Assembly (NCBI GenBank): GCA_964611805.1
Contig: CAZTBG010000001.1
Location: 1-63,564, forward strand
DNA length: 63,564 nucleotides
Direction of reading: 5' to 3'
Source of the DNA: an uncultured Dehalococcoidales bacterium
Lineage (GTDB): Bacteria; Chloroflexota; Dehalococcoidia; Dehalococcoidales; Fen-1064
Positions within the stretch are counted from its first letter, which is position 1, and each line of letters starts with the position of its first letter. Below are positions 1 through 36,350 of this stretch, in pieces. The notes under the pieces were generated by a model. It had not been told where the DNA came from and did no database searches. It saw nothing but the letters and a program-made list of their open reading frames with translations. The position numbers were made by a program, and so were the translations under genes.

Positions 1-683
1 TATATCTCAGGATAGCTGTCAAAAGTGCTACGCTCAAAGGCGTTGAACAGCATCGAAGGTTCCAGTTTGCCGCCAGCCCTGAGCACTGAAACCAGTCTAT
101 CTGTATACTGACCATTCGTATAGTCGCTCTCCTTCAACCCGGCATAGGCCCGCCCCGTTTTTCCCGACTCGCGGGGAACCGCCGGTACCACCAGAACAAC
201 CCAGCTTTGCGAGAGTGAAGGCAGTGGGGTCACAATCTCTCCCCTGCCTTCTATCAGAGCAGTGCCGCCACGAAGGAAAAAGACCACGTCCGAACCCAGC
301 TCCGCAGCCAGCCCGAGCAGCCTTTCCTGAGGCAGCTTCAACCCCCAGAGCCGGTCCAACCCGAGCAGAACAGCTGCGGCATCGCTGCTATCGCCGCCGA
401 GGCCGGAGAGTAAGGGAATATATTTATCGACCTCAATAACTACGCCGGTCATATAGCCGGTGGCCTCCCTGAGGAGATTAACTGCCTTCGATACCAGGCT
501 CTTCTCGGGGAGCCACCCCGGCATGCTGGACTTGAACCGGGTCCGGCTATTCTCTTGAAAACGAAGGGTATCGCACAGGTCTATTGTCTGAATAACGCTG
601 CGAATTTCATGGTAGCCGTCAGCGCGTTTGCCCAGCACCTCCAATGTCAGGTTCAGCTTAGCAGGCGCCCGAATTGTCAGCAT
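1..683 (-). CDS. ispE: 4-diphosphocytidyl-2-C-methyl-D-erythritol kinase (IspE), C-terminus beyond window edge
   Basis: Minus-strand translation from ATG at 683 gives MLTIRAPAKLNLTLEVLGKRADGYHEI. Further on is the GHMP-kinase motif PLLSGLGGDSSDAAAVLLGL. The frame is open to position 1, which is why it is absent from the ORF track. The start overlaps the rsmA stop. Confidence 0.8.
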   Translation of the reverse strand, partial: MLTIRAPAKLNLTLEVLGKRADGYHEIRSVIQTIDLCDTLRFQENSRTRFKSSMPGWLPEKSLVSKAVNLLREATGYMTGVVIEVDKYIPLLSGLGGDSSDAAAVLLGLDRLWGLKLPQERLLGLAAELGSDVVFFLRGGTALIEGRGEIVTPLPSLSQSWVVLVVPAVPRESGKTGRAYAGLKESDYTNGQYTDRLVSVLRAGGKLEPSMLFNAFERSTFDSYPEI

Positions 684-1564
684 TTTGCTTGCCCGCCTTC
701 GGTAAACACCTCCCATAGTCGCGCCCACTCGTCAAGAGACAGGGTCTCTGCCCGGCGTTGTGGTTGAATACCCGCCTTCTCCAGCAGGGGCAGTATCTCC
801 TCTCGCGACAACCCTAATCCCTGCGCCAGCGAATTCACCAGCTGCTTGCGGGCAGCGCTGAACCCGGCACGCACCAGGTCGAAGAAGCTATTTATATCGC
901 TGACAACCACCCTCGGCTCAGGATAGACATCTATCCTGAGCACCGCCGAATCGACCTCCGGCTCAGGGTAGAACGATGCGGCTGATACATAACCGACTAT
1001 CGTTGCTTCCCCGTAGAACTGCACGCTGACACTGAGCAGACTCATCCGGCCGGGCCGGGCGGTGATGGTCTCGGCGACCTCCTTCTGCATCATGATGACC
1101 ATAGTCTGTGGCCTGACCGTGGCCTCGAGGAAATGTCGCAGCACCGGCGAGGTAATGTAATAGGGCAGATTGGCCACCACCTTATATCGACCCTGTCCAC
1201 CTGATTCCTTAATCAAGACTGCCGGGTCGAAGTTTAGTATATCGCCATTAATAACTGTAACGTTATGCAAAGATACCAGTTCCTCTTGCAGGGCCGCCGC
1301 CAGACGGTCGTCCAGCTCGACAGTAATTACCCGGCCAGCCTGCCCGGCCAGCCCCCTGGTAAGGACACCAAGCCCCGGCCCCACCTCAATAACAATATCG
1401 CTGGCAGTTAATGCGGCGGCTTCCACGACAAGCCCCAGCACCTCACGGTCAATGAGGAAGTGCTGTCCCAGTCCTTTCCTGGCATGGAGACCGTAACGAT
1501 GCAATAGTCGCTTCGCCTCGGCCAGGAGTGGGTCGGTTTCCCCACGATTTCTACCGCGGGGCAT
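677..1564 (-). CDS. rsmA: 16S rRNA (adenine1518/1519-N6)-dimethyltransferase RsmA/KsgA
   Basis: 295-aa ORF with LGQHFL, SAM motif VIEVGPGLGVLT and VVANLPYYITSP. It overlaps its neighbours by 1-7 nt, indicating an operon. Confidence 0.95.
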   Translation of the reverse strand: MPRGRNRGETDPLLAEAKRLLHRYGLHARKGLGQHFLIDREVLGLVVEAAALTASDIVIEVGPGLGVLTRGLAGQAGRVITVELDDRLAAALQEELVSLHNVTVINGDILNFDPAVLIKESGGQGRYKVVANLPYYITSPVLRHFLEATVRPQTMVIMMQKEVAETITARPGRMSLLSVSVQFYGEATIVGYVSAASFYPEPEVDSAVLRIDVYPEPRVVVSDINSFFDLVRAGFSAARKQLVNSLAQGLGLSREEILPLLEKAGIQPQRRAETLSLDEWARLWEVFTEGGQAKC

Positions 1565-2169
1565 TATTTCCCCTCTGCTAACACGATATCTTCATGGTGC
1601 GGGCGGTACCACTCCCGCTTAACTTCCCACTCGGAGCGGAGTATACTCAAAAACCACTGGTCACGCCACTCACCCCGCTTGAAAACATGAGACCTCAACG
1701 TCCCGTCCACGGAAAAGCCATTCTTCTCCAGCACCTTGCGGCTGGCCACATTACTGGTGAACGCGGTCGCGTAAGCCCTGGCAGCATCGAGGTAAACAAA
1801 CGAGAAGTGGCAGACGAGCCGGACAGCTTCGGTCATGTATCCATTATTCCAGTAAGGGACGCCGAGCCAGTAGCCGATGTCTATCTGCTGGGGGTGAAGA
1901 CGAGGGCGGGCTCCAATACCGCCAATAAGTCCGGGTTTAGCCACCTCTTCTATGGCCAGGTTGTAGCTTTCGCCTGTCCTGAGTCGCTCCGCCATGCCCC
2001 GATATACCTCACGCTGCTCTTCAAGAAAAGCCAAACCCTCAGTGACGAGACGGGACAGCACACGGTCGTCCATGAAAAGTCGATAGGCATTCGTGGCATC
2101 ACCCTCCCGAATCGGACGAAGCCTGACTTTATCGCCAACCAGCTCAATGTGGCTAAATCCAGCAGGCAT
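1564..2169 (-). CDS. GNAT family N-acetyltransferase (RimJ/RimL-like)
   Basis: 201-aa ORF with the typical RimJ-type layout (VRLRP, GYWL, NxxSxxVLEKxGF). It is tightly packed between HerA and rsmA. Confidence 0.8.
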   Translation of the reverse strand: MPAGFSHIELVGDKVRLRPIREGDATNAYRLFMDDRVLSRLVTEGLAFLEEQREVYRGMAERLRTGESYNLAIEEVAKPGLIGGIGARPRLHPQQIDIGYWLGVPYWNNGYMTEAVRLVCHFSFVYLDAARAYATAFTSNVASRKVLEKNGFSVDGTLRSHVFKRGEWRDQWFLSILRSEWEVKREWYRPHHEDIVLAEGK

Positions 2170-3792
2170 TCAGTCCCAGAGCTCCTCGATGTCCTTTTTT
2201 GACTGCTGGCCAATCCCTGCTTCACCAACGAAGCTCTTATATGACTCCGCTGAGCCGTACTCCCTCGTCCTGATGGGCACGGGCATGGGTACGGCGTGGC
2301 CGAAGATGAGGGCCTGCTGCTTCGGCGCCAGCCTGGCCAGGACCGATTTCAACTCGCTCTTACCGGAGACACCGGCCAGAACGCTGTCGATATCCTTCTC
2401 GTTATCAAGCAGGCAGGTTATCTTGGTACCAAGCTGCGACATCACCTCTTCGTCGATACCGCTCGGTCTCTGGTCGATGACCAGCAGGCTAACGTTATAC
2501 TTGCGCATCTCGCGGGCAATCGTCCCGAAGATAGCCCGACTAGCCACCTCGGGATTGAGAAACTTATGGGCCTCCTCGATAGTTATCACCAGCGGGTTGG
2601 GCGGGGCGATATCCTCGCTCATCGAGCGCTCCATCCGCTCCTGATAGCGGGCATAGATGCGCCGGGCGAGCATATTGGCCACCAGTACATAGGCAGTGAT
2701 ATCCCGGTATCGACCGAACTCAAGGACGACATTCATGCCCTTATCGAGATAGCTCAGCAACGTATTCACGGCATCGACCGGCGCGTGCGGCTCAATGAAA
2801 GACAACCGGCTGATAGTCTGCAACCCTCGCCGCAGACTCTGGAAGGTGCTCTCGTGGATATTCATCTCTTTGAGCAATTCCTGCGTGTCCTCCGACTCCC
2901 CTACATCCAGTGTACGCTGAATCCACTGCCTGCCGAAGCGACGGCGCAGCTGGTATGAGGCCTCTACGGCCAGGTCGGTGATATTCAGTGTCTGGCGGAG
3001 CAGCACCATATCCTCCGGCTCGATTTCGTCATAGCCAATCTTCACCACGAAGTCGGTACTGACCCCACGGCGGCGTGAGTTCTCCTCGTCGAGGGTAAAG
3101 ACCGCCACCTTCTCGGGGAATAGCTGCTTTAATGCCTTAACCTTGCGCCCATCCGTTTCGCTCGTACCCATCCAGCCGTACTCGTTATGCATATCAAAAA
3201 TGAGGTTAACCGACTTACTTTTTTGAAGCATGCCGATAAGCAGAATCCGGGTAAGAAAAGTCTTGCCCGTGCCGCTCTTGCCAAAAATACCGTTGGAGCG
3301 CTTGACGAACTCCGGCAGGTCTAAGCAGAGCTTGGTCTCCATGTCCAGGGGGTTCCCGATAAAGAAGCGGTTCGCGTCTTCCTCACCGAAAACGAGGTTC
3401 ATGTCATCGTCCGAGGCCAGGCTGACCATGGAAAAGTGACTGGGGACGGTCTTTACCGGCTGTGGCCCCTCAATCAGACTGGTAACATCACCACCAATGG
3501 TCAGCATCGGCAGGACATGGATGGTGCCATAGGTGGCCGTGCCGTTGAGCACCTCAGAGAGGAAGGGGTCGGCGGTATCCGGGGGGTTGACAGTGAGCTG
3601 CGGGTCGGTGACCCCCAGGCTGATGTCGGTAATCATGCCGAAAAAGCGCCGCTGCCGGCCCTCAATGGTAACGTAGCGCCCGACTACCATGTCCTCGACC
3701 GAGGCTGAGCTGTCCAGTCTGACCTCGACCCCTTTATCCACGGAGCCGGAGACAACAATACCGAGCGGCTGTCTGGCGTTTTCACCAATCAT
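2170..3792 (-). CDS. HerA-like (FtsK-HerA superfamily, DUF87) hexameric ATPase
   Basis: 540 aa. N-terminal barrel-like segment LGIVVSGS..VGRYVTIEG..FFGMITDI, Walker A GIFGKSGTGKTF, Walker B/HerA signature VITIEEAHKF, and LLVIDQRPSGIDEEVMSQ. Confidence 0.85.
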   Translation of the reverse strand: MIGENARQPLGIVVSGSVDKGVEVRLDSSASVEDMVVGRYVTIEGRQRRFFGMITDISLGVTDPQLTVNPPDTADPFLSEVLNGTATYGTIHVLPMLTIGGDVTSLIEGPQPVKTVPSHFSMVSLASDDDMNLVFGEEDANRFFIGNPLDMETKLCLDLPEFVKRSNGIFGKSGTGKTFLTRILLIGMLQKSKSVNLIFDMHNEYGWMGTSETDGRKVKALKQLFPEKVAVFTLDEENSRRRGVSTDFVVKIGYDEIEPEDMVLLRQTLNITDLAVEASYQLRRRFGRQWIQRTLDVGESEDTQELLKEMNIHESTFQSLRRGLQTISRLSFIEPHAPVDAVNTLLSYLDKGMNVVLEFGRYRDITAYVLVANMLARRIYARYQERMERSMSEDIAPPNPLVITIEEAHKFLNPEVASRAIFGTIAREMRKYNVSLLVIDQRPSGIDEEVMSQLGTKITCLLDNEKDIDSVLAGVSGKSELKSVLARLAPKQQALIFGHAVPMPVPIRTREYGSAESYKSFVGEAGIGQQSKKDIEELWD

Positions 3793-4400
3793 AACCTGAG
3801 CCTCCCCAGAATAGCCCTGAGCTTGCTGAACTCGCTGCTGAGGAGCACCGCCAGTTCGCGACCGGCCGCCTTCAGAAAGGCCTGTCTGTCCTCGTGCGCC
3901 TGGCTCATCTGGCGCAGGGTAGCGGCGACAAGCTCCTCCACCGAGACAGGTAGCGAGGTATTGAGCAGAAGGTTAAGGAAATCGAAGGACCGGCTGAATT
4001 CTCTTACCCGCTCCGAAGGACATAGGTAAACAAAACTGTGGATTCGGGGCGGTTTTGGCGGTAGATACTGATAGATAGTCTCACCGTTACTATGCCCGAC
4101 CACCAGGGTGCTGAACTCGCTGCGCAGTAGCTTTTCAAGCTGCGGGCTTGATTTATATATTTCCTCTTCGGAAGCCTCGTCCTTGCCGCGTGCAATGGGA
4201 CGCCGTCCCGGCTCAACGCTGGCGGTGGTGGCGTGGTAGACGATGCCAAACGTCTCCAGAGACGTATCTCCGACGCTCACCAGACCGCCCAGCGGCGGCA
4301 ACTCGTAGAGCTGGTAGCACTCAGCGACGAAGTGGGTGGTGCTGGCCTCGATTACCTCGCCGACCCTGTCTGATAAATCAGGCATTTTTAAAAACCCCAT
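3789..4400 (-). CDS. hypothetical protein with HAS-barrel-like N-terminus, translationally coupled to HerA
   Basis: 203-aa ORF whose stop overlaps the HerA ATG (ATGA). Its N-terminus VGEVIEASTTHFVAECYQ..LGGLVSVGD..TFGIVYHATTAS resembles the N-terminal barrel pattern of the adjacent HerA. No ATPase motifs. Confidence 0.6.
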   Translation of the reverse strand: MGFLKMPDLSDRVGEVIEASTTHFVAECYQLYELPPLGGLVSVGDTSLETFGIVYHATTASVEPGRRPIARGKDEASEEEIYKSSPQLEKLLRSEFSTLVVGHSNGETIYQYLPPKPPRIHSFVYLCPSERVREFSRSFDFLNLLLNTSLPVSVEELVAATLRQMSQAHEDRQAFLKAAGRELAVLLSSEFSKLRAILGRLRL

Positions 4401-4485
4401 CCCCCTGTGTCCCCCTTCCCCTTAAAAAGGGGAAGGGGGAATAATTTTCCTAAGAGGGGCTTCGCCCCTCTTTAACTCCCCTATT
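4395..4485. repeat. family-1 double-hairpin repeat (GGGGAAGGGG hairpin + AGAGGGGC-N4-GCCCCTCT hairpin)
   Basis: Reads ccccttcccc-ttaaaaa-ggggaagggg followed by aagaggggc-ttcg-cccctctt, then aactcccctatt. The same architecture recurs at 4692, 7741, 24091, 36269 and 43901. Confidence 0.8.
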
Positions 4486-4603
4486 TCTTTTTGCCCTTTT
4501 CGGCCTTTTTGTCCTTCTGCTTGGGTTTTTTGATGTTTTTACGTCCCTTGGTACCCATTTTCAGCTCCTTCCAGCCACAGTTTGTATCCCGGCGACCCTA
4601 TCC

Positions 4604-4669
4604 CCTGCCCGCCGTCCCTCCGGCCTGCTCGCCGTACGACTTCGGCAGGCGAGGACTATGGCAGGCGGG
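4604..4669. repeat. family-2 GC-rich palindrome (CCTGCCCGCCGTCC...ACTATGGCAGGCGGG)
   Basis: cctgcccgcc...ggcaggcggg inverted repeat with an inner hairpin cctgctcgcc/ggcaggcgagg. The same core occurs at 27.2, 37.3 and 54.4 kb. Confidence 0.7.
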
Positions 4670-4691
4670 CCTTTATCCCCTTCAGGAAGAA

Positions 4692-4773
4692 CCCCTCAGG
4701 GTGAACCCTTCCCCTGAGAGGGGAAGGGGAGCTTTATGTAAGAGGGACTCCGCCCTTCTTCGACTCCCCTATT
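4692..4773. repeat. family-1 double-hairpin repeat
   Basis: cccttcccc-tgaga-ggggaagggg followed by aagagggac-tcc-gcccttctt, then cgactcccctatt. It is a degenerate copy of the 4395 element. Confidence 0.75.
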
Positions 4774-4838
4774 TGTATGCCGCATAAAGCGGATACACAC
4801 TAATTATTTCCTACACGTGCGCACAGAAAAAAGAGACT

Positions 4839-5138
4839 TCAGCGGTCTGTACGTTCTTTATTTATCTCTTCCTTCAATCTATAGCACTCTTCTAAGTCGA
4901 CATTAAACGCATTTGCCAATGCTATCACATAATACAAAACATCATAAAGCTCTTCTTCAATCGTACCTTTGATAGTCTTATTGCGGTCACCTCGGTATCT
5001 TTGATTATTCCTTACAACTTCGGCGAGCTCTCCTACTTCCTCTACCAGCTTCATAAAGTAGCCCTCTTTTAACTCGGGTTTAAAGTCCTTATCTTTGATG
5101 TATTGTTGCAGGTATTTAATCGTTATGTTATGTCTCAT
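4839..5138 (-). CDS. MazG-like nucleotide pyrophosphohydrolase
   Basis: EEVGELAEVV and EELYDVLYYVIALANAFNVDLEE are typical MazG helices. I prefer the start MRHNITIKYL (5138) over the ORF-track start 5207, which overlaps the upstream gene by 50 nt. The gene is visibly AT-richer than its flanks. Confidence 0.75.
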   Translation of the reverse strand: MRHNITIKYLQQYIKDKDFKPELKEGYFMKLVEEVGELAEVVRNNQRYRGDRNKTIKGTIEEELYDVLYYVIALANAFNVDLEECYRLKEEINKERTDR

Positions 5139-5157
5139 AGCCACCGTCTTTACTTTA

Positions 5158-5637
5158 CTATAGATATCCCTCCATAGTGTTGTAGGCTGCCCGGAGCCGG
5201 TCACCAAGCAGGCAGGCCAGCTTGTCCATCACCCTGAACCCGATTACCGGCTCTTTCTCTAGCGCCGCTCTGAGCCTGGCCCCCTCGATGATAATCAGTT
5301 CACTGGGCTGCCGGCAGACAGCCGAGGCCGTAGCGTATCTTGGCCCGTAGAGCAGTGCCGACCAGCCCATAGCCCTACCCCTACTTAAAAGCCCCAGGGG
5401 CCGGGTGGCTGTCTTGTCACCGAGATTAACCGTCCGCTGCAGGACCACCTGACCGCTAACAATAACATAAAGATTAGAGCTCAATTCCCCCTGGTCAAAA
5501 ACATGGTCGCCGGCCTGATATGATTCCATCTGGCAGCTATCCCCGAGCAGGCCGGTAATTACCTGCACCTCACTCTCATCCAGCGAGTCGAACAGCTCGC
5601 ACGTCCTCAGGTCCTTACAAATATTGCTAGCCGCCAT
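5158..5637 (-). CDS. stand-alone cyclic-nucleotide-binding (CAP effector) domain protein
   Basis: 159 aa. LFDSLDESEV..FDQGELSSNLYVIVSGQVVL..GRAMGWSALL matches the cNMP-binding beta-barrel pattern. No output domain. Confidence 0.8.
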   Translation of the reverse strand: MAASNICKDLRTCELFDSLDESEVQVITGLLGDSCQMESYQAGDHVFDQGELSSNLYVIVSGQVVLQRTVNLGDKTATRPLGLLSRGRAMGWSALLYGPRYATASAVCRQPSELIIIEGARLRAALEKEPVIGFRVMDKLACLLGDRLRAAYNTMEGYL

Positions 5638-5832
5638 GTTCCTCTCCTTCCTCCGAAGGCGATGTCTTACGGTTGTCTCGGTATTCTACAACTGCAATTC
5701 CACCTGGTCAATGTAATGAAACAAGTCATACTAGCTCTATCACCTACCAACTCTGTACATTTCACATGTTAAATTATGCACCCCGCCACCCCTCGTGTTT
5801 TCCATTCGGTAATCCTGTCCCCTCTTTTCCCC

Positions 5833-6387
5833 CTAGTCTTTAAGAATAATATCTATCTCACCTCTATTTTCAGTCTCTTCTTCAATATCTCTTTTATAAG
5901 TGTATATGAGTTCAAACCTTGTTGGGTCCCCACTCTCAGGGACTTCAAAAACCCAAAATGCCGTTGCGCCCTCCGTTATCTCGCTGGGACTCGTTATGTC
6001 GTGCGGGTCAGTGAATGTAATTCCCTTAAGGTTGGCAGCGATAGACTTATATGTCTGACCTGTGGTGTTCAATAAAGCCGTTTCCTCCTCGCCATAACCG
6101 AACGCATCAATCATGTGTACATTCTCAATACGGGTGACAGTCAGATAAATGCAGAAGAAATCATGCCCCGTAGCAGGTGCAGGCGGCTGGTAATGCGTTG
6201 TGGTCGAAAGGTCTTCGACTATGTCGGCAGGCATAACGCTGGCTCTCTCTATTTTGTCGATAACAATCGTGACGTTAGTGTCAGATGCTTCAATATTCTC
6301 CGAACCCGATTCGGAGCCGGATACTCCACCACAAGCACCGAGTAAGCTAACGCCAATTACTAGCATTGTTACTAATAGTCTTATCAT
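5833..6387 (-). CDS. lipoprotein (DUF4352-like beta-sandwich, tentative)
   Basis: Signal peptide plus lipobox MIRLLVTMLVIGVSLLGAC. The gene is AT-rich. The fold assignment is only a guess. Confidence 0.65.
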   Translation of the reverse strand: MIRLLVTMLVIGVSLLGACGGVSGSESGSENIEASDTNVTIVIDKIERASVMPADIVEDLSTTTHYQPPAPATGHDFFCIYLTVTRIENVHMIDAFGYGEEETALLNTTGQTYKSIAANLKGITFTDPHDITSPSEITEGATAFWVFEVPESGDPTRFELIYTYKRDIEEETENRGEIDIILKD

Positions 6388-6444
6388 TCTAACCTCTCTT
6401 TTCTACCCCGTGTGATGGGGACACAGGGGGTGAGATTACCGATA

Positions 6445-7635
6445 CTAGACCCACCTCGTCCGCTTGCTACGGCTCTTGGCCGAGCCCATAACGGGCAGGT
6501 GCTCCTCCACCAGGGATGCCTCTACCAGTCGCCAGAAGTTCTCGGCATCCGCCCCGGTTACGACCGCCTTCTCGTGGGCTTCGCTCAGGGCTACCGGATA
6601 GCCATGCCCCCGCCGACACTGGTCAAGGACAAGGGCATGGGTAAGGTTGAGCAGGTCTTCGTCGGCAGCCACCCACTGCGGTATCTCAATCCTGGCGACC
6701 TCGTCGTCTACCCTTAGATAAAAGAAGTGAACCAGGTGGACTCCATAACGCCGCTGGATATTGGAGGAACTGACAAAAAGTGCCGACCGTTCGCCGGGCT
6801 CGAGCAGACTGGCAAACAGCTCGCGGTCACGCACACCGGCCAGGGCATCACATTCTCGCGTCTCACACGCCGGACAGCGGTCGCTATCAACTACCTCCCG
6901 GGGACAAACAGCCACACGCAGCGCATTAACGACATCGGTGCTGCGAGGAAAGCTGATGTAACCGGCGAGAGCGAGCTTCCTCTCCTGACTCAGTTTCCTC
7001 AATTCTTCGAGGTATGGCAGGAAGCTTCTATCAAGCAGCTCTTCGGCAACGAAGTCGGCGTAGGCCTCCAGGTTCCAGAGAATCAGCGAGCCATCGAGCA
7101 GCGCCAGTGCCGGGCTATCTGCTGTCAATGCTGACGCCAGTTCCACCAGGTGCCGGCACTCGGCGACGCCACGCTTGAGACCCAGTAGAGCACCCTCTAT
7201 CGGTTGCTCACGGCCCCGCTGTCCCGGCTCTGCAATCACCAGGTCTTCATCCCCAGCGTAGAGACGGGGCAGGCTGTCGAGAATAGCCCCGGGGTTGGTT
7301 CCGTAGTGAAGAGTAACCGAGCCGATGTTTATCAGGTAGCAGCGCGTCGAGCGATGCCGGTCGACGTCAATATGAGAGCCATCACTGGCAATGACGGTGA
7401 AATCTGCCGGAACCGGTGGTGCCGGATAACATTGGGCAAGGCCATCCACCAGGCCGGCCACCAGCCAGGTCGTCCGGCTGGCATCAATTTTCCTCCGAAG
7501 CCGCTCTATGTCGTCCTGACGGTTGAGCACTGCCAGGGCATACTCAAGGTGTTCCTGTCTTTCCCGGCTGTCGGCCCTCAGTCTGGCCACCATAGCCGCC
7601 ACCTGCGAAACAATCTTGCTCAAGTCCAGGGCCAT
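6445..7635 (-). CDS. NurA-domain 5'-3' nuclease
   Basis: VIASDGSHIDVDRH, LALLDGSLILWNLE and C-terminal GHGYPVALSEAHEKAVV are the NurA signature blocks. I chose the start MALDLSK at 7635, which is preceded by GGGGAGAG. The ORF track extends to 7686. Confidence 0.8.
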   Translation of the reverse strand: MALDLSKIVSQVAAMVARLRADSRERQEHLEYALAVLNRQDDIERLRRKIDASRTTWLVAGLVDGLAQCYPAPPVPADFTVIASDGSHIDVDRHRSTRCYLINIGSVTLHYGTNPGAILDSLPRLYAGDEDLVIAEPGQRGREQPIEGALLGLKRGVAECRHLVELASALTADSPALALLDGSLILWNLEAYADFVAEELLDRSFLPYLEELRKLSQERKLALAGYISFPRSTDVVNALRVAVCPREVVDSDRCPACETRECDALAGVRDRELFASLLEPGERSALFVSSSNIQRRYGVHLVHFFYLRVDDEVARIEIPQWVAADEDLLNLTHALVLDQCRRGHGYPVALSEAHEKAVVTGADAENFWRLVEASLVEEHLPVMGSAKSRSKRTRWV

Positions 7636-7740
7636 ACTTCTCTCCCCACACCAGACTCCCTTACCCTGAAAGTATAGTGAATCCACGGAAGCAACTCAAG
7701 CTACTCTATCTCTTCCTCACCACCCAGTTTGATGGTGTTG

Positions 7741-7824
7741 GCCCCATCCCCTGTATCCCCTTCCCCGGTGGGGAAGGGGAATTTTATAAAAAAGAGGGGC
7801 TGCGCCCCTCTTAAACGCTCCCTT
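7741..7824. repeat. family-1 double-hairpin repeat
   Basis: gccccatcccctgtatccccttcccc-ggtg-gggaagggg followed by aagaggggc-tgcg-cccctctt. It is near-identical in layout to 4395 and 36269. Confidence 0.8.
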
Positions 7825-7863
7825 CAGCAGGTATGCTACAATCTTCAATGAGGTAGCACCAAA

Positions 7864-8475
7864 ATGATACCAGTTCTGTTAGGTGTCGCTGCAATCTCTC
7901 TAACCGGTGTGATGATGCCGGGGCCGATGTTTGCCGTTACCGTAGCCAAGAGCTACCGCAGCCCCTGGGCAGGAACCCAGATGGCCCTCGGGCACGCCGT
8001 GATAGAAGTGCCGCTGATACTGCTGATATATTTCGGCTTTGCCCGGTTCTTTGAGAACGTTACCCTGCAGCTGGTATTGAGCCTGCTGGGCGGCGGTATC
8101 ATTATCTGGCTAGGTTTCAGCATGTTTCGCGCCCGTGCTGAGGTAGTCCACGGAGAGAAAGACCTCTCTTACAACGCCACCACCGCCGGTATTATAACCA
8201 GCGGGCTCAACCCCTTTTTCCTGCTCTGGTGGGCAACCGTCGGCTTTGCACTTATTGAGCGGATTGATGACTATGGCGCCGCCGGGCTGACCGCCTTCGT
8301 CCTCGTCCACTGGTCATGTGACCTGGTCTGGCTATCGCTGATATCTGTAGTGATATACAAAACGCAGGCACTCTGGGATAAACGCCTCCAGGAAGGGTTG
8401 TTTATCATTTGCAGCCTGATTCTGGCGGGGTTCGGGGTGTGGTTCATTGTCTCCGGCGTCCAGCAGGCAGTTTAG
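7864..8475 (+). CDS. LysE/RhtB family amino-acid exporter
   Basis: 203 aa with six hydrophobic segments. N-terminal GPMFAVTV and overall LysE-type organisation. Confidence 0.75.
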   Translation: MIPVLLGVAAISLTGVMMPGPMFAVTVAKSYRSPWAGTQMALGHAVIEVPLILLIYFGFARFFENVTLQLVLSLLGGGIIIWLGFSMFRARAEVVHGEKDLSYNATTAGIITSGLNPFFLLWWATVGFALIERIDDYGAAGLTAFVLVHWSCDLVWLSLISVVIYKTQALWDKRLQEGLFIICSLILAGFGVWFIVSGVQQAV

Positions 8476-8476
8476 G

Positions 8477-9385
8477 TCACTCCTGGCGCAGGCTGCATTC
8501 GAGCACGTGGCAAACGTGGCACTCAATCTGGCAGGGCTCGACATGGATGGTAATACTGGTGTTGGTCAGCCTTTCCTCGATGTCTTTCTCCAGGTGGTCA
8601 CACATGTCGTGGGCCTCTTCAACACTGGCGTTCTTGGGCATTACCAGGTGCAGGTCAATAAAACGCTGGTTGCCAGACTTCCGGCCACGGATGGCATGGA
8701 AACCGGCCAGCTGGCCGCGGTGTTCATTAATGCAGTCGACCAGTATTTTCTGCTCTTCTTCAGGCAGACGGACATCGGTCAACTCTATGACCGACTGCCG
8801 GATGACGTCGTAAGCGGCTTTCAGTATCAAACCGGCCACTCCTAGGGCAATAATCGGGTCGACAATATCCCACCCGGTTATGCGTATCACAGCCATCGCC
8901 ACCAGCACACCTGCTGCGGAATAGACATCGGCACTGATGTTACGGGCGGACGCCTCCAGCGCCAGCGAACCGGTTGCCCGCGATACCCGGTGCAGGTGAC
9001 GGGCAAGGATGATACTGACCACCACTGAGAGCGCCATCACACCGATTCCGGCCTCGGTCAACTCTACCATGGCACCATTGATAATCCGGATAATTGCGGA
9101 ATAGACTATTATGGCGGCTGCCGTCAGAATCAGCACCGCCTGCCCGATGGCGGCGATACCCTCCACTTTGCCATGCCCGAAGGGGTGACCTTCATCAGCC
9201 GGCATCACTGACATACGGACGGCGAAAAGAGTAATGGTGATACCAAACAGGTCAAGAAAGCTGTCCACCGCCTGGGCGGTGATACTGAGACTCCCGGTTA
9301 TCCACGCCACCACTACCTTGACAATAATCAGGACAATGACGGCGGATAAAGCCAGCCGGGCAGCACCGGTCCTCGTTGAGAACAT
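8477..9385 (-). CDS. cation diffusion facilitator (CDF) family metal efflux transporter
   Basis: 302 aa. AVDSFLDLF, HPFGHGKVE and a C-terminal cytoplasmic domain ending in the Cys/His-rich tail HVEPCQIECHVCHVLEC. Confidence 0.85.
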   Translation of the reverse strand: MFSTRTGAARLALSAVIVLIIVKVVVAWITGSLSITAQAVDSFLDLFGITITLFAVRMSVMPADEGHPFGHGKVEGIAAIGQAVLILTAAAIIVYSAIIRIINGAMVELTEAGIGVMALSVVVSIILARHLHRVSRATGSLALEASARNISADVYSAAGVLVAMAVIRITGWDIVDPIIALGVAGLILKAAYDVIRQSVIELTDVRLPEEEQKILVDCINEHRGQLAGFHAIRGRKSGNQRFIDLHLVMPKNASVEEAHDMCDHLEKDIEERLTNTSITIHVEPCQIECHVCHVLECSLRQE

Positions 9386-9392
9386 CTGACCA

Positions 9393-10337
9393 TTACCCCC
9401 TCCGGGCTCCCCCGGTAGTCAGAGACGGCCAACGGATGAAGCTGAACCACCCGCCTTTTTCCCAGACCACCAGCAACAGAGGCGCCACGAAGAGTGAGCT
9501 GTAGGTTCCAGAGATAACGCCAATCAACAGAACAATGGCAAAATTCTGAATCGATGCGCCAACAAACAGCACCAGTGCTATTACCACCACCAGTGTGGTC
9601 AGGCTGGTGTTTAGCGACCGGCCCAGTGTCTCCACCAGGCTGGTGTTGACCACAACCTCAAAGTCGGCGCTTATCCCCTGACGCAGGTTCTCCCTTACCC
9701 GGTCAAAGACGACCACGGTATTATTCACACTGTAGCCGATAACGGCCAGGATACCGGTGATAAACATCAGGTTGACTTCCCAGTTCATTATGCCGCCGAG
9801 CAGAGAGAAAATCCCCAGCACCACCACCACATCATGAACCAAGGCAACTATGGCACAGGTACCATAGCGGAAGGGGCTGGGCATTCTGCGAAACGCCCAG
9901 GTGATATAAAGAAGTATACCTACAGTAGCCACTGCCACAGCAATACCAGCTACCCTTGCTGTCCCCGTAGATACTTCAGACGATACCAATCGGAACTCCG
10001 GCTCCTCCTTCAGGCTGCCGAAAGTACTTACCAGACCGTCCAGAAGATGCTGTTGTTCTTCTTCGCTTAATTCTTGCGTGCGAATAAGGAACCCATCCTC
10101 AGCCCCTTCTTCGGTAAGTATGGTCTGCACAATGGCGCCTTCATAGCCAAGGTTAGCAAGGGTCTCCACCAGTTGCCCGCTATCTACGTCTTCTTCAAAG
10201 TTCACCCTGACTTCCAAGCCGCTGCTGAACTCGATGCCGAGCTTCAGGCCAAATACCAGCAGGAAAATAACACAGGCAAGTATTACTAAGCCTGAAAGGC
10301 AAAAGAACCATACCCGCTTGCCGACAATATCAAACAT
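9393..10337 (-). CDS. secF: protein translocase subunit SecF
   Basis: 314 aa with LGIEFSSG and VVFDRVRE motifs. Overlaps the secD stop. Confidence 0.9.
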   Translation of the reverse strand: MFDIVGKRVWFFCLSGLVILACVIFLLVFGLKLGIEFSSGLEVRVNFEEDVDSGQLVETLANLGYEGAIVQTILTEEGAEDGFLIRTQELSEEEQQHLLDGLVSTFGSLKEEPEFRLVSSEVSTGTARVAGIAVAVATVGILLYITWAFRRMPSPFRYGTCAIVALVHDVVVVLGIFSLLGGIMNWEVNLMFITGILAVIGYSVNNTVVVFDRVRENLRQGISADFEVVVNTSLVETLGRSLNTSLTTLVVVIALVLFVGASIQNFAIVLLIGVISGTYSSLFVAPLLLVVWEKGGWFSFIRWPSLTTGGARRG

Positions 10338-11889
10338 TTTTCCTTCCTGAATACGGAGTGAAGAGTTCAGTCCGCCTTCCCAACCGGGTGCCGACGAACA
10401 TACGTAACAGGGTCCGTGTTACCACAATAGCGGTAAACATGCTCACTGCCACGCCAATAAAAAGGGTCAGTGCGAAACCCATGACGGGTTCTCCCGCCAC
10501 TATACTGGCACCAACCCAGTATAGAATGATGCAGACAATGAAGGTGGTAACATTACTGTCACGAATAGCCGTCCATGCCCGGCTGAATCCAGCCTCGACA
10601 GCAGCCCCCAGTGTCCGCCCCGTTCTAATCTCCTCCTTCATCCGCTCGAAGATGAGCACGTTGGCATCGACGGCCATACCCAGAGACAGAACAAAGCCAC
10701 CGATACCTGCCAGCGTCAGGGTGACCGGTATCAGCTTGAAAAGGGCCAGGACCACTACCCCGTAAAAGACCAGGGCCAGACTGGCCAGAAGACCGGGTAT
10801 ACGATAGTAGACAATCATAAAAAGCACAACGAGTATGGCGCCAATTAACCCCGCCTTTAGACCCATATCGACCGAGATATTCCCCCGTGCAGCTGATACC
10901 AGGTCTTCGTAGAGTGGCTCATCGCTCAGGGGCATGGGCAATGAACCGGACTCAAGCAGATTGGCCAGACGAATTGCTTCCTGTGCCGTGAAATTACCGG
11001 TTATCTCGCCCCTGCCTTCTGCATACTCTGGATAAAGAATCTGAGGTGCGGACAGGAGTTCTTTATCCAGAAAGATGCCTAGGCAACGCTGGGGAGAATC
11101 ATACGGGCCGGAATAATATATCTTTGCAGCTACCTCGTTGAAAAGGTTTCCACCCTCTTCAGTCCAGACAATTCCAATCGTCATTTGACCGCTGCTTTGG
11201 TTCAGATTAGCATTGGCCTCTGACAGGAAAGCGCCAGTAAGTACAGTACCATCCTCTCCTCTAGCAGGAATCCAGCTCCGAAGTTTTCCGGGAATCTGTT
11301 TCAGTTCCTCTACATCAACTGGAGCGCCGTCAATATCAACGTAGGACAGATTGCCTTCCTCATCTTTGACAAGGATGGCAGCCGGTATACCCTGATTATA
11401 ACCTTCCTCTGCGAAGATGCGAGTGCCACTCTCATTCTCATCAAAGAACGCCGGCTCTTCAAGCTCCAGATAGCTACTGAGATATACGGGATTACCCTCA
11501 TCATCCAGTTCTACCATCCTGAATTCCAGGAAGCCAGTCTGTTTTACCAGCTTCTTAGCCTCCTCAATGTCAGTGAAACCGGGTAGTTTCACCGAGATAC
11601 ACTCCTCTCCACCAATCTCCACTTTCTGAATGGTAGGTTCAGTGACACCATATCTATCGATTCGGGTCCGGATGACCTCAAGTGCTCTATCAATACCCTG
11701 TGCCCGCTCCTCAGCTGTGGTCCCTTCAGGAAACTCGGCCTTATATACCAGAGACACACCCCCGGCAAGGTCAAGCCCCAATTGCGTTCCCTTCTTACCC
11801 AGTATCCCTTCATCGAAGGGAAATACCACCAGCACCGCCAGAATGAAAACGATTATTATGCTGATGAAAATCCAGGTGTTCCTTCTCAT
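10330..11889 (-). CDS. secD: protein translocase subunit SecD
   Basis: 519 aa. LGLDLAGGVSLVY, large periplasmic domain, and C-terminal GFVLSLGMAVDANVLIFERMKEE. Confidence 0.9.
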   Translation of the reverse strand: MRRNTWIFISIIIVFILAVLVVFPFDEGILGKKGTQLGLDLAGGVSLVYKAEFPEGTTAEERAQGIDRALEVIRTRIDRYGVTEPTIQKVEIGGEECISVKLPGFTDIEEAKKLVKQTGFLEFRMVELDDEGNPVYLSSYLELEEPAFFDENESGTRIFAEEGYNQGIPAAILVKDEEGNLSYVDIDGAPVDVEELKQIPGKLRSWIPARGEDGTVLTGAFLSEANANLNQSSGQMTIGIVWTEEGGNLFNEVAAKIYYSGPYDSPQRCLGIFLDKELLSAPQILYPEYAEGRGEITGNFTAQEAIRLANLLESGSLPMPLSDEPLYEDLVSAARGNISVDMGLKAGLIGAILVVLFMIVYYRIPGLLASLALVFYGVVVLALFKLIPVTLTLAGIGGFVLSLGMAVDANVLIFERMKEEIRTGRTLGAAVEAGFSRAWTAIRDSNVTTFIVCIILYWVGASIVAGEPVMGFALTLFIGVAVSMFTAIVVTRTLLRMFVGTRLGRRTELFTPYSGRKNV

Positions 11890-13421
11890 GTATTTCCCTC
11901 GGTAGACAAGCGATTCCGGACATACTCCAGCGCCTCCTCCCGGCTGGTTATCTCGCCGACAGCCTGTGCCTCACGTACTGCCTCAAGGAGTTCTCCGAGG
12001 TCGGGGCCGGGGCTGAGCCCGAAGATATTAATCAGGTCATGCCCGTCAACCAGCTTCACGGGACGGACCTGCTTTTGCTGTTCGTAGTACTGCTTGAGAA
12101 CGTAATCAACGATGTGGGTATGCTCCTGCCAACCAGCCCGGTCGAGGTGCGGGCCTCTGGTCGCGAGGTGGTCAGCCATACTGAGAAAGAGGGTATCAAT
12201 ACCAGCCTCGCCGGCATCACGGAAGTAACGATAAATCGCCCGGTGGGTGGGCAACCCCTCCTGGCTCATCTGCATCGGCCTGAGATGATACTTCACCATG
12301 GTCTCGACCAGCCTGGTCTCTTTCGTACTGAATCTCAGCCTCTCCAGGACAGCAACCGCTATCGACGCTCCCTCCCGGGCATGTCCCAGGAAGCGCATCC
12401 GTCCGTCAGGTTCAATAGTCTTCGTCTGTGGTTTGGCGACGTCATGCAACAGTGCCGCCAGCCTGAGGAGTGCCCCTCCGGTGCTACCACTGCTTACCTC
12501 CCGCTCAAAATGTCGGGCGAGCCCGGCCGACCAGGGAACAGTCGCCAGCAACTCTCCGTCGGCATGCTCCCAGTCCCCCTGCTGGAGGAGAAAATCGACG
12601 GCCTGCACTGTCTTCAGAGAATGACCGAAGACATCCCAGAAGTGTTCCCTGGGCTGCTCAACACCCTTTAGCACTACCAACTCCGGGAGCACAGCCGTCA
12701 ACAGTCCCAACCTATCCAAATAGACAACAAACCGTCCGCTGCCAGGCAAGACAAGGAGACGGAGCAGTTCTTCCCTCACCCGCTCACCGGCAATACCGGA
12801 CACCAGATAAGCGTGCCGGCGAATCTGTGACTCAGTGTCACTGTCGACGCTGAAACCGAGTTCAGCGGCAAGGCGTACTGCCCGCAGGAGACGGACGGCA
12901 TCAGCCTCAAAAATTGCCTCACTGACACCCCGAACCAACCCCCGCTCAAGGTCTTCACAGCCGTTGTAAGGGTCAATCAGCCGTACGTTTCGTGAGTCTC
13001 TAATCAGGTGGCCTATATCAATTGCCATCGCATCTATCGTGAAATCGCGCCTCGCCAGGTCCTGCTCGATGTCGCCTTCGTAGGAAGAGAAATCTAGCTG
13101 CCAACGGCCCTCAGCCGCTTTCCCCTCAGCAAAAATTACCCTGGCTACCCCAAAAGCCTCGTCCAGCAGGACATATTTACCATTCAGGGCATCAGCCACC
13201 CGACGAGCAATTTCGAGTGCATCGGCGGCGACGGCGATATCAATGTCAGGTGTAGGCCGACCAAGCAGCGTGTCACGCACGAATCCACCAACGACATATC
13301 CCCGTACTCCGGACTCGCTGAGAAGCCCACTTATCCGGCTTAAGACTGGCATGGCACCGGACTCGGTTAAATTTCCTAAGAATTCCTTACTTACCTTTTT
13401 GGTTAAATCGAGTCCCATCAT
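11886..13421 (-). CDS. cca: CCA-adding tRNA nucleotidyltransferase with HD domain
   Basis: GGFVRDTLLGRPTPDIDIAV (pol-beta head) and LLHDVAKP (HD). The start is chosen at the MMGLDL methionines (13421). The ORF track extends to 13478. The 3' end overlaps the secD start by 4 nt. Confidence 0.85.
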   Translation of the reverse strand: MMGLDLTKKVSKEFLGNLTESGAMPVLSRISGLLSESGVRGYVVGGFVRDTLLGRPTPDIDIAVAADALEIARRVADALNGKYVLLDEAFGVARVIFAEGKAAEGRWQLDFSSYEGDIEQDLARRDFTIDAMAIDIGHLIRDSRNVRLIDPYNGCEDLERGLVRGVSEAIFEADAVRLLRAVRLAAELGFSVDSDTESQIRRHAYLVSGIAGERVREELLRLLVLPGSGRFVVYLDRLGLLTAVLPELVVLKGVEQPREHFWDVFGHSLKTVQAVDFLLQQGDWEHADGELLATVPWSAGLARHFEREVSSGSTGGALLRLAALLHDVAKPQTKTIEPDGRMRFLGHAREGASIAVAVLERLRFSTKETRLVETMVKYHLRPMQMSQEGLPTHRAIYRYFRDAGEAGIDTLFLSMADHLATRGPHLDRAGWQEHTHIVDYVLKQYYEQQKQVRPVKLVDGHDLINIFGLSPGPDLGELLEAVREAQAVGEITSREEALEYVRNRLSTEGNT

Positions 13422-36268: not shown

Positions 36269-36350
36269 GCCCCATCCCCTTAATCCCCTTCCCCAGAGGG
36301 GAAGGGGAAGATTTAGTAAGAGGGGCTGCGCCCCTCTTTAACTCTCCTCC
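36269..36350. repeat. family-1 double-hairpin repeat
   Basis: ggccccatccccttaatccccttcccc-agag-gggaagggg followed by aagaggggc-tgcg-cccctctt, then aactctcc. Confidence 0.8.

Follow-up and report, generated by a model that had tools for sequence, protein, structure and literature searches.

HerA forms hexamers that translocate double-stranded DNA. NurA, whose toroidal dimer has two RNase H-like sites, binds to HerA at the HAS-barrel face, and together the two proteins resect DNA ends (PMC9960219). In the characterised homologues, HerA drives the duplex into NurA, the strands are degraded and a recombinogenic 3′ tail is left. The literature treats NurA-HerA as a two-protein machine, and the bacterial versions studied are those of Deinococcus and Thermus only. 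The present work concerns a nurA-herA locus of an uncultured Dehalococcoidales bacterium (Chloroflexota, lineage Fen-1064), located in a 63,564-nt stretch of contig CAZTBG010000001.1 (assembly GCA_964611805.1; hereafter the window) from a 97%-complete genome of 2.09 Mb with a GC content of 0.525. Both genes are on the minus strand (nurA 7635..6445, herA 3792..2170) and 2.65 kb separate them, which confirms the shared strand and the distance of about 2.6 kb given in an earlier reading of the same DNA (the original prediction). The question is whether genes so separated still serve one machine, what this machine does in the cell, and how the separation arose.

The window probably holds a vertically inherited three-protein end-processing locus, formed by NurA, HerA and a stand-alone HAS-barrel protein of 203 aa (X203), which was split by passenger genes and has a role in resection or repair. 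In the mechanism that we propose, the HerA ring motor, the NurA nuclease and the free barrel X203 would form one DNA-end-processing machine. X203 would be a stoichiometric third subunit in touch with NurA, the HerA collar or both, and would serve there as adaptor, loader or additional collar.

The nuclease and the translocase

The nurA product matches PF09376 over almost the whole profile (positions 2–254 of 254, E 4e-31, 108.9 bits against a cut-off of 21). Its longest ORF is 7686..6445 (GTG 7686, 413 aa) and the ATG at 7635 is the likely start; the alignments of homologues begin at residues 13–18 of the long ORF. The motifs named in the original prediction are present at residues 101 (SDGSHID), 196 (LLDGSL) and 362 (GYPVALSEAH) in the 413-aa numbering, in which D102, E176, D198, Y363 and H371 are conserved in at least 97% of 73 NurA homologues. 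The conserved D102-G-S, E176, D198-G, Y363-P and H371 are assigned as catalytic motifs from published NurA work. Structures were predicted as single chains with AlphaFold2 and compared with the PDB by Foldseek. The NurA model (pLDDT 80.3) has the RNase H-like NurA fold, and its best matches are 2ygk of SsoNurA (E 3.3e-8), 7f6d_G of DrNurA in its HerA complex (E 1.7e-7) and 1zup of TmNurA (E 3.3e-4). A phmmer search of NurA against the PDB sequences retrieved no PDB NurA.

The NurA proteins of this clade also present the invariant cysteines C244, C254 and C262 and a fourth cysteine at 251 or 257 (396-aa numbering). In the window, this cluster is encoded around 6850–6906 (residues 244–262) and falls in a loop of low model confidence; it may be a metal-binding insertion, which the cited NurA papers do not mention.

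HerA includes its own PF09378 HAS-barrel (residues 11–103, E 1.1e-10) and a PF01935 DUF87 domain (residues 144–379, E 5.3e-31). The motifs GKSGTGKT, IEEAH and DQRP, also named in the original prediction, are at residues 171, 405 and 440. Walker A (G171–K177), Walker B (E406–H409), R427 and DQRP are conserved in 85 homologues, the quoted motifs at 97% or more, and the identity across the order ranges from 63% to 94%. The NCBIfam HerA equivalogs were missed (85 bits against a cut-off of 970 for helicase_HerA, and 79 against 800 for HerA_antiphage), and phmmer against the PDB matched HerA chains over the C-terminal third only. By its sequence, the protein belongs to a divergent clade of the HerA family.

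A stand-alone HAS-barrel protein

X203, which was under-weighted in the original prediction, is the most interesting part of the locus. Its family comprises 3044 homologues in 781 clusters at 50% identity, all of them "hypothetical protein" where they are named. Close homologues carry Dehalococcoidia or Dehalococcoidales labels of metagenome-assembled genomes (MAGs); outside Chloroflexota, the matches come from few labelled MAGs, which are possibly mis-binned.

In the Pfam scan of the window proteins X203 itself has no match, falling below Pfam detection, and phmmer against the PDB sequences gave nothing useful. The PF09378 HAS-barrel is, on the other hand, matched by 33 of 79 diverse X203 homologues (best E 2e-9). 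An hhalign comparison of the family with a single herA sequence was weak (E 0.056). The AlphaFold2 model, built with an alignment of diverse homologues, reaches a pLDDT of 95.9 and a pTM of 0.90, and presents a beta-barrel at residues 12–126 followed by a helical domain. All 50 PDB matches listed by Foldseek are HerA-family chains (HerA or TdpA), with a best E of 4.5e-7 and alignments of 125–214 columns; among them are repair HerA proteins from archaea and bacteria, HerA from defence systems, and TdpA, and SsoHerA (4d2i) is the best. Homology with the HAS barrel is supported by the Pfam matches of family members together with the predicted fold. The P-loop is absent from X203, which has no ATPase part, and few residues are invariant across the family (P35, G38, L113, P114, P117, A179 and L194). 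We are confident that the modelled X203 corresponds to the N-terminal HAS-barrel domain of HerA plus a small helical domain, without the ATPase.

X203 thus copies the exact domain on which NurA docks. Since this free copy of the docking domain is made in step with HerA, X203 is probably a third subunit, in contact with NurA and/or the HerA collar, and one that is described in no paper found. An adaptor ring, a mixed collar and a decoy regulator would look alike on single-chain models.

A more distant branch of the family is formed by a gene of 195–198 aa located between nurA and herA in two genomes (G170 and G073), which hhalign relates to the X203 family at 96.7% (E 3.6e-10, 169 columns). The proteins P0341–P0405 of this branch, relatives of L136:8712-9308, carry the precomputed Pfam tag PF26500.1; no paper citing PF26500 was found in the searchable literature. 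One apparent NurA-X203 fusion (P0209) was rejected as Rosetta-stone evidence, as it consists of a C-terminal NurA fragment, unrelated low-complexity sequence and then X203, probably a frameshifted or run-on gene call.

Distribution and synteny of the trio

Presence was counted over a panel of 41 relatives, which includes 17 high-quality genomes of the order Dehalococcoidales. The herA, nurA and X203 genes are each found in 35–36 of the 41 relatives and in 17/17 high-quality genomes, and are core genes of the order. This co-occurrence, which X203 shares, supports nurA and herA as genuine partners here. The gene order was followed in 20 fetched relatives and 80 named Dehalococcoidales loci, the locus search with the narrower X203 alignment having reached Dehalococcoidales only, as well as in 17 loci from other Chloroflexota classes. 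The order nurA > X203 > herA, on one strand, is kept in the 20 relatives and the 80 loci. The gap between X203 and herA is at most 35 bp in 59 of 74 Dehalococcoidales loci, and the nurA-X203 spacer measures 251–5334 bp, with a median of about 1.5 kb (n = 50 named Dehalococcoidales loci).

Compact exceptions in the order are found in genomes of the cultivable type, with nurA-X203 spacers of 59 bp (G032, in which X203 abuts herA) and 122 bp (G034). In the other Chloroflexota classes the spacer is 10–194 bp in the 17 loci, and X203 usually abuts herA. Because of the short spacers in other Chloroflexota and in these two genomes, the compact nurA-X203-herA operon is the ancestral state, and the separation of nurA from herA is derived. 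The original prediction had described the two genes as split by insertions and had asked whether nurA adjoins herA where the insert is missing; the compact layout of these relatives and the low-GC, restricted genes in the spacer of the window agree with such a split.

In Dehalococcoidales the nurA-X203 junction would thus have turned from part of a compact operon into a permissive landing site. In other genomes its cargo has no common theme, and includes a DUF7670 membrane protein, a 23S-rRNA-IVS protein (23S_rRNA_IVP), GNAT, LOG-family and transglutaminase-like proteins. In this genome the spacer would have gathered an older gene for a cyclic nucleoside monophosphate (cNMP)-binding protein, two low-GC genes, a 25-aa gene and hairpins. 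These spacer insertions suggest that nurA and X203-herA are probably separate transcription units now.

Cargo was also observed on the other side of X203. Three relatives of the same genus have 2.8–6.5 kb between X203 and herA (L014:5895-12380, L015:5270-11643 and L016:4262-7052), in contrast with the ATGA overlap of this genome, and this cargo encodes an AraC/GyrI regulator, a radical-SAM/SPASM enzyme, a transglutaminase-like protein, a small GNAT and DUF6886. In several genera a GNAT-like ORF of 152–178 aa (MNDFRFNDYG...), which differs from the 201-aa GNAT of this genome, is wedged between X203 and herA (L018:6132-6637, L019:4738-5245 and L020:6114-6637).

At the phylum level, a survey of 201 Chloroflexota genomes found X203 in 87 and nurA in 133. 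The 87 X203-positive genomes are all nurA-positive, and X203 occurs in none of the 68 nurA-negative genomes. From the coordinate tables we read that about 77 of the 87 genomes have nurA and X203 on one contig with no more than 2.5 kb between them. Where herA lies elsewhere, X203 adjoins nurA; where nurA is displaced, as here, X203 adjoins herA. The position of the locus is also fixed, with a LysE-type exporter / CDF transporter / secDF block on one side and, in this family, GNAT-rsmA-ispE on the other.

Genes of the nurA-X203 spacer

The original prediction placed a MazG-like gene, a cNMP-binding gene and a lipoprotein gene between nurA and herA. All three were found, and the 25-aa gene at 4558..4481 has to be added to that list. 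The MazG-like gene (GC 0.377, GC at third codon positions (GC3) 0.42) and the lipoprotein gene (GC 0.450, GC3 0.443) are AT-richer, as had been reported, than nurA, X203, herA, GNAT, rsmA and ispE (GC 0.55–0.60, GC3 0.62–0.74). About 2% of the genome windows have a GC of 0.40 or less and about 7% a GC of 0.45 or less. The MazG-like protein matches PF03819 over profile positions 7–46 of 74 only (E 5.9e-8, 33.3 bits against a cut-off of 22) and also matches MazG entries of the PHROGs; for the lipobox protein, nothing was found in Pfam, NCBIfam, PADLOC or PHROGs. The MazG-like gene occurs in 3/41 relatives, all of the same genus and at the same locus, and the lipoprotein gene in 2/41, of the same genus and in the same place. 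The low GC and this restriction by genus and position mark both genes as recent passengers.

The cNMP-binding gene (GC 0.571, GC3 0.675) is not AT-rich, and its orthologues, with 62–92% identity, lie directly 3′ of nurA in nine genomes of four genera. Its sequence relations identify it as an old companion of nurA in this family and not as a recent insert, and the lipoprotein gene is inserted between it and nurA in this genome.

Cellular role and alternative explanations

The repair background of the host agrees with a role of the trio at DNA ends. The recJ gene is present in 21/21 relatives, and the PDDEXK_1 nuclease domain of AddAB/RecB was not found in this genome and in 12 of 20 relatives. 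Outside the window, the recJ match of this genome (G000:C37:15935-17518) holds one in-frame TAG, which could be an assembly error or a sign of a pseudogene. Some Chloroflexota that have nurA without X203 present mre11-rad50-nurA clusters, and the arrangement mre11-rad50-nurA-(195–198-aa barrel-family gene)-herA occurs at L136:2517-12506 and L140:5323-12979, with extra genes before herA in L136. These clusters link the nurA-barrel-herA trio to the classical archaeal gene set for double-strand break repair. An Mre11/SbcD-like phosphoesterase of 419 aa is encoded at G000:C27:4216-5475, outside the window and without an adjacent Rad50/SbcC gene. The likely cellular role of the locus is DNA end resection and recombinational repair beside RecJ, in organisms without AddAB/RecBCD.

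Some observations speak against a three-protein repair locus. X203 lies away from nurA in about 10 of the 87 phylum genomes and herA lies elsewhere in several, so that tight operon linkage is not obligatory. A tblastn search with Chloroflexota Rad50 found none in this 97%-complete genome, which does not prove its absence. In addition, there is disagreement about what bacterial NurA-HerA does in vivo: deletions in Deinococcus and Thermus have modest or mixed effects (PMC9960219), and a 2026 review gives the bacterial complexes a role against foreign DNA (PMC13748450).

The last point leads to the possibility, raised in the original prediction, that the locus is an anti-phage or foreign-DNA module, in which HerA would act with NurA as effector, the cNMP protein as sensor and MazG as modulator. 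In Sir2-HerA and DUF4297-HerA, whose structures are among the fold matches of X203, a HerA-family ATPase does have a nuclease or NADase effector as its partner, and according to the same review the main activity of bacterial NurA-HerA is the degradation of exogenous DNA (PMC13748450). PADLOC was run accordingly: HerA matches its HerA models (best E 4e-32), but mainly over the generic C-terminal ATPase part, and the cNMP domain has a weak match (E 5e-5, 20 bits) to the sensor domain of a Pycsar TIR effector, whereas NurA, X203, MazG, the lipoprotein and GNAT have no PADLOC match. The locus has no cyclase and no Sir2, DUF4297 or TIR effector. As the MazG-like and lipoprotein genes occur in so few relatives (3/41 and 2/41), they are not parts of a conserved system, and with the cNMP gene being an old neighbour of nurA, the view of the cNMP and MazG genes as components of nucleotide-signalling defence finds no support. 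The trio itself is core (17/17), has a fixed position amid conserved housekeeping neighbours, and is placed behind mre11-rad50 in relatives. No X203 homologue was found in collections of 72,556 plasmids and 50,697 phages, where NurA matched only a haloarchaeal megaplasmid. A defence function is thus very unlikely.

Two other explanations concern the relations between the proteins. The genes might be functionally uncoupled, X203-HerA being a translocase that works with another partner such as RecJ, while NurA, with the cNMP protein attached to it, acts independently. The promoter-like site of nurA itself, the further promoter-like sites and stable hairpins of the spacer, and the occurrence of nurA-X203 pairs without a nearby herA in other Chloroflexota are consistent with this, as are the genus g7 and a few other genomes, in which nurA and X203-herA are on different contigs, and an interaction of HerA with RecJ reported in Deinococcus (PMC4663267). 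Many of the different-contig cases, however, are short metagenomic contigs, all three genes are kept together in every good genome of the order, and X203 is confined to nurA-positive genomes and adjoins whichever of nurA or herA remains, which fits a bridging subunit better; uncoupling therefore appears improbable. Alternatively, X203 could be a decoy or regulator that occupies NurA in competition with the HerA barrel, so that the nuclease would stay silent until the DNA is damaged. It shares the fold of the NurA-docking domain without the ATPase, and its family has few invariant residues, yet the ATGA coupling to herA suggests equimolar synthesis, typical of complex partners, and leaves such a regulator little probability. 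We therefore retain the three-protein end-processing locus. A more specific version of it, in which an X203 ring, or X203 within the HerA collar, would lie between HerA and NurA in a three-tier machine unlike all solved HerA complexes, and in this bacterial family the cNMP protein would gate the nuclease through a cyclic nucleotide, is a tentative proposal that we regard as rather doubtful.

Layout of the locus and downstream genes

All genes of the locus are transcribed from the minus strand, in the order nurA, lipobox protein, cNMP-binding protein, MazG-like protein, hairpin module 2, 25-aa gene, hairpin module 1, X203 and herA, followed by GNAT, rsmA and ispE (Table 1).

Table 1. Features of the nurA-herA locus and its surroundings, in window positions.
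Feature	Position	Strand	Basis or remark
REP-like double-hairpin module 3	7758..7811	.	In the divergent intergenic region between nurA and the LysE-type exporter; regex census and RNA fold
Promoter-like site 5′ of nurA, TTGAGT-17-TATACT	7671..7699	-	Consensus scan 9/12, pattern match only
nurA	6445..7635	-	NurA nuclease, 396 aa from ATG 7635; PF09376
Lipobox protein, 184 aa, passenger gene	5833..6387	-	Without family match
Promoter-like site 5′ of the cNMP gene, TTGACC-17-TAGAAT	5683..5711	-	10/12, the best of the region; pattern only
Stand-alone cNMP-binding-domain protein, 159 aa	5158..5637	-	PF00027, E 1.7e-12
MazG-like NTP pyrophosphohydrolase, 99 aa, passenger gene	4839..5138	-	ATG 5138; ORF from TTG 5207; PF03819
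REP-like double-hairpin module 2, degenerate copy	4706..4759	.	Fold z -1.78
Lysine-rich microprotein gene, 25 aa, MGTKGRKNIKKPKQKDKKAEKGKKK	4481..4558	-	Sequence reading and conservation
REP-like double-hairpin module 1	4413..4471	.	Between the microprotein gene and the barrel gene; fold
Stand-alone HAS-barrel protein X203, 203 aa	3789..4400	-	198 aa if from ATG 4385; candidate third subunit
herA, HerA/FtsK-type ATPase with its own HAS barrel	2170..3792	-	DUF87 and HAS-barrel
GNAT (Acetyltransf_3), 201 aa	1564..2169	-	PF13302, E 4.9e-26
rsmA, 16S rRNA dimethyladenosine transferase	677..1564	-	PF00398 (RrnaAD), E 1.6e-53
ispE, truncated at the contig end	3..683	-	ORF runs past the window start; homologues 3′ of rsmA in relatives

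X203 and herA share an ATGA stop-start overlap, without in-frame read-through. Further on, the TGA of herA directly abuts the ATG of GNAT (TGAATG), the GNAT/rsmA junction is TAATG, and rsmA and ispE overlap by 8 nt. The packing of herA into GNAT-rsmA-ispE by overlapping or abutting stops and starts was verified base by base. The X203-herA-GNAT-rsmA-ispE chain recurs in the same bacterial family and at a few other loci. The description of herA as fused into a housekeeping operon accordingly holds for this genome and not as a wider rule, being a family-level trait. Because herA is followed by other genes in the more distant members of the order, the herA-GNAT-rsmA-ispE arrangement is a lineage-specific juxtaposition, and it probably provides constitutive co-expression instead of representing a conserved functional unit. 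In the proposed history of the locus, X203-herA would have been chained to GNAT-rsmA-ispE in this bacterial family.

Hairpin repeats and the microprotein gene

The region includes repeats that are composed of a GGGGAAGGGG-type hairpin and a AGAGGGGC...GCCCCTCT hairpin. Module 1 (4413–4471) has perfect stems of 14 bp and 9 bp and folds at -44.1 kcal/mol (z -3.71), and module 3 (7758–7811) folds at -37.9 kcal/mol (z -3.15). In the genome, the AGAGGGGC-loop-GCCCCTCT hairpin family has 47 copies and the CCCTTCCCC-loop-GGGGAAGGG family 22, with none of either in the shuffled genome. There are 14 paired double-hairpin modules in the genome and three of them are within this 3.4-kb stretch; a further one was observed in the window at 36286–36337. 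As they have no T-runs on the coding strand, the hairpins are considered elements like the repetitive extragenic palindromes (REP-like) and not intrinsic terminators. The Rfam scan of window positions 1–12000 gave no RNA family, and the hairpins correspond to no known riboswitch or small RNA. The three hairpin repeats that the original prediction located at 4395–4773 are real as repeats, although they form two composite modules (4413–4471 and 4706–4759), and the third copy reported at 4828–4863 did not stand, being only 61% alike and overlapping the 3′ end of MazG.

Between modules 2 and 1 lies the 25-aa gene, which has a Shine-Dalgarno site and encodes a peptide that begins MGTKGRKNIKKPK. Over its first 13 residues the peptide hardly varies in 51 of 81 Dehalococcoidales loci, while the third codon positions vary freely; Gly, for example, is encoded by four different codons and Arg by six. 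The gene is single-copy, and 14 of the 16 strict matches in relatives are located in the nurA-X203 spacer. In a genome of the same genus (G001) the stop codon of the microprotein is about 10 nt from the start of the barrel gene, with no hairpins between them. This pattern of conservation indicates that the gene of the lysine-rich microprotein is real.

Comparison with known systems

The closest bacterial counterparts are NurA-HerA of Deinococcus radiodurans (PDB 7F6D and 7WRW; PMC9960219) and HepA/NurA of Thermus (PMC5448004). As in these systems, NurA has the RNase H-like fold, with 7f6d_G as the second-best match, HerA combines a HAS barrel with DUF87, and the host has RecJ without AddAB/RecBCD. 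The Deinococcus and Thermus systems, however, are described as two-component, whereas here a conserved free HAS-barrel gene is located between nurA and herA; in addition, the proteins are very distant and nurA is displaced by passenger genes. The archaeal Mre11-Rad50-HerA-NurA operon of Sulfolobus, Pyrococcus and Thermococcus has the same two enzymes, its 2ygk and 4d2i structures are the best fold matches, and some Chloroflexota trios follow mre11-rad50. In contrast, this genome lacks the mre11-rad50 linkage and has the extra barrel gene, and the host is a bacterium from a mesophilic or sediment lineage. The defence systems Sir2-HerA (Nezha), DUF4297-HerA and TdpAB, which are among the X203 fold matches, also have a HerA-type hexamer with an effector on the HAS-barrel face, but the present locus has no Sir2, DUF4297 or TdpB effector, gives no system-specific PADLOC match and consists of core genes that are not island-borne.

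According to the 2026 review, bacterial nurA is without stable synteny (PMC13748450). The nurA-barrel-herA trio of Chloroflexota is stable and contradicts this statement. The synteny and defence statements of the review are drawn from Deinococcus and Thermus and do not describe this phylum.

Significance

The split of nurA from herA is ordinary genome dynamics. It is useful for telling the core genes (nurA, X203 and herA) from their passengers, and it shows that X203 keeps its place beside herA when nurA is displaced. The notable content of the locus is an apparently undescribed barrel-only partner of NurA-HerA, a conserved microprotein gene and a nurA-linked cNMP protein. Chloroflexota is a large and environmentally dominant phylum, which includes the organohalide-respiring Dehalococcoidia; if X203 is a subunit, both the architecture and the regulation of end resection in this phylum would depart from the textbook model.

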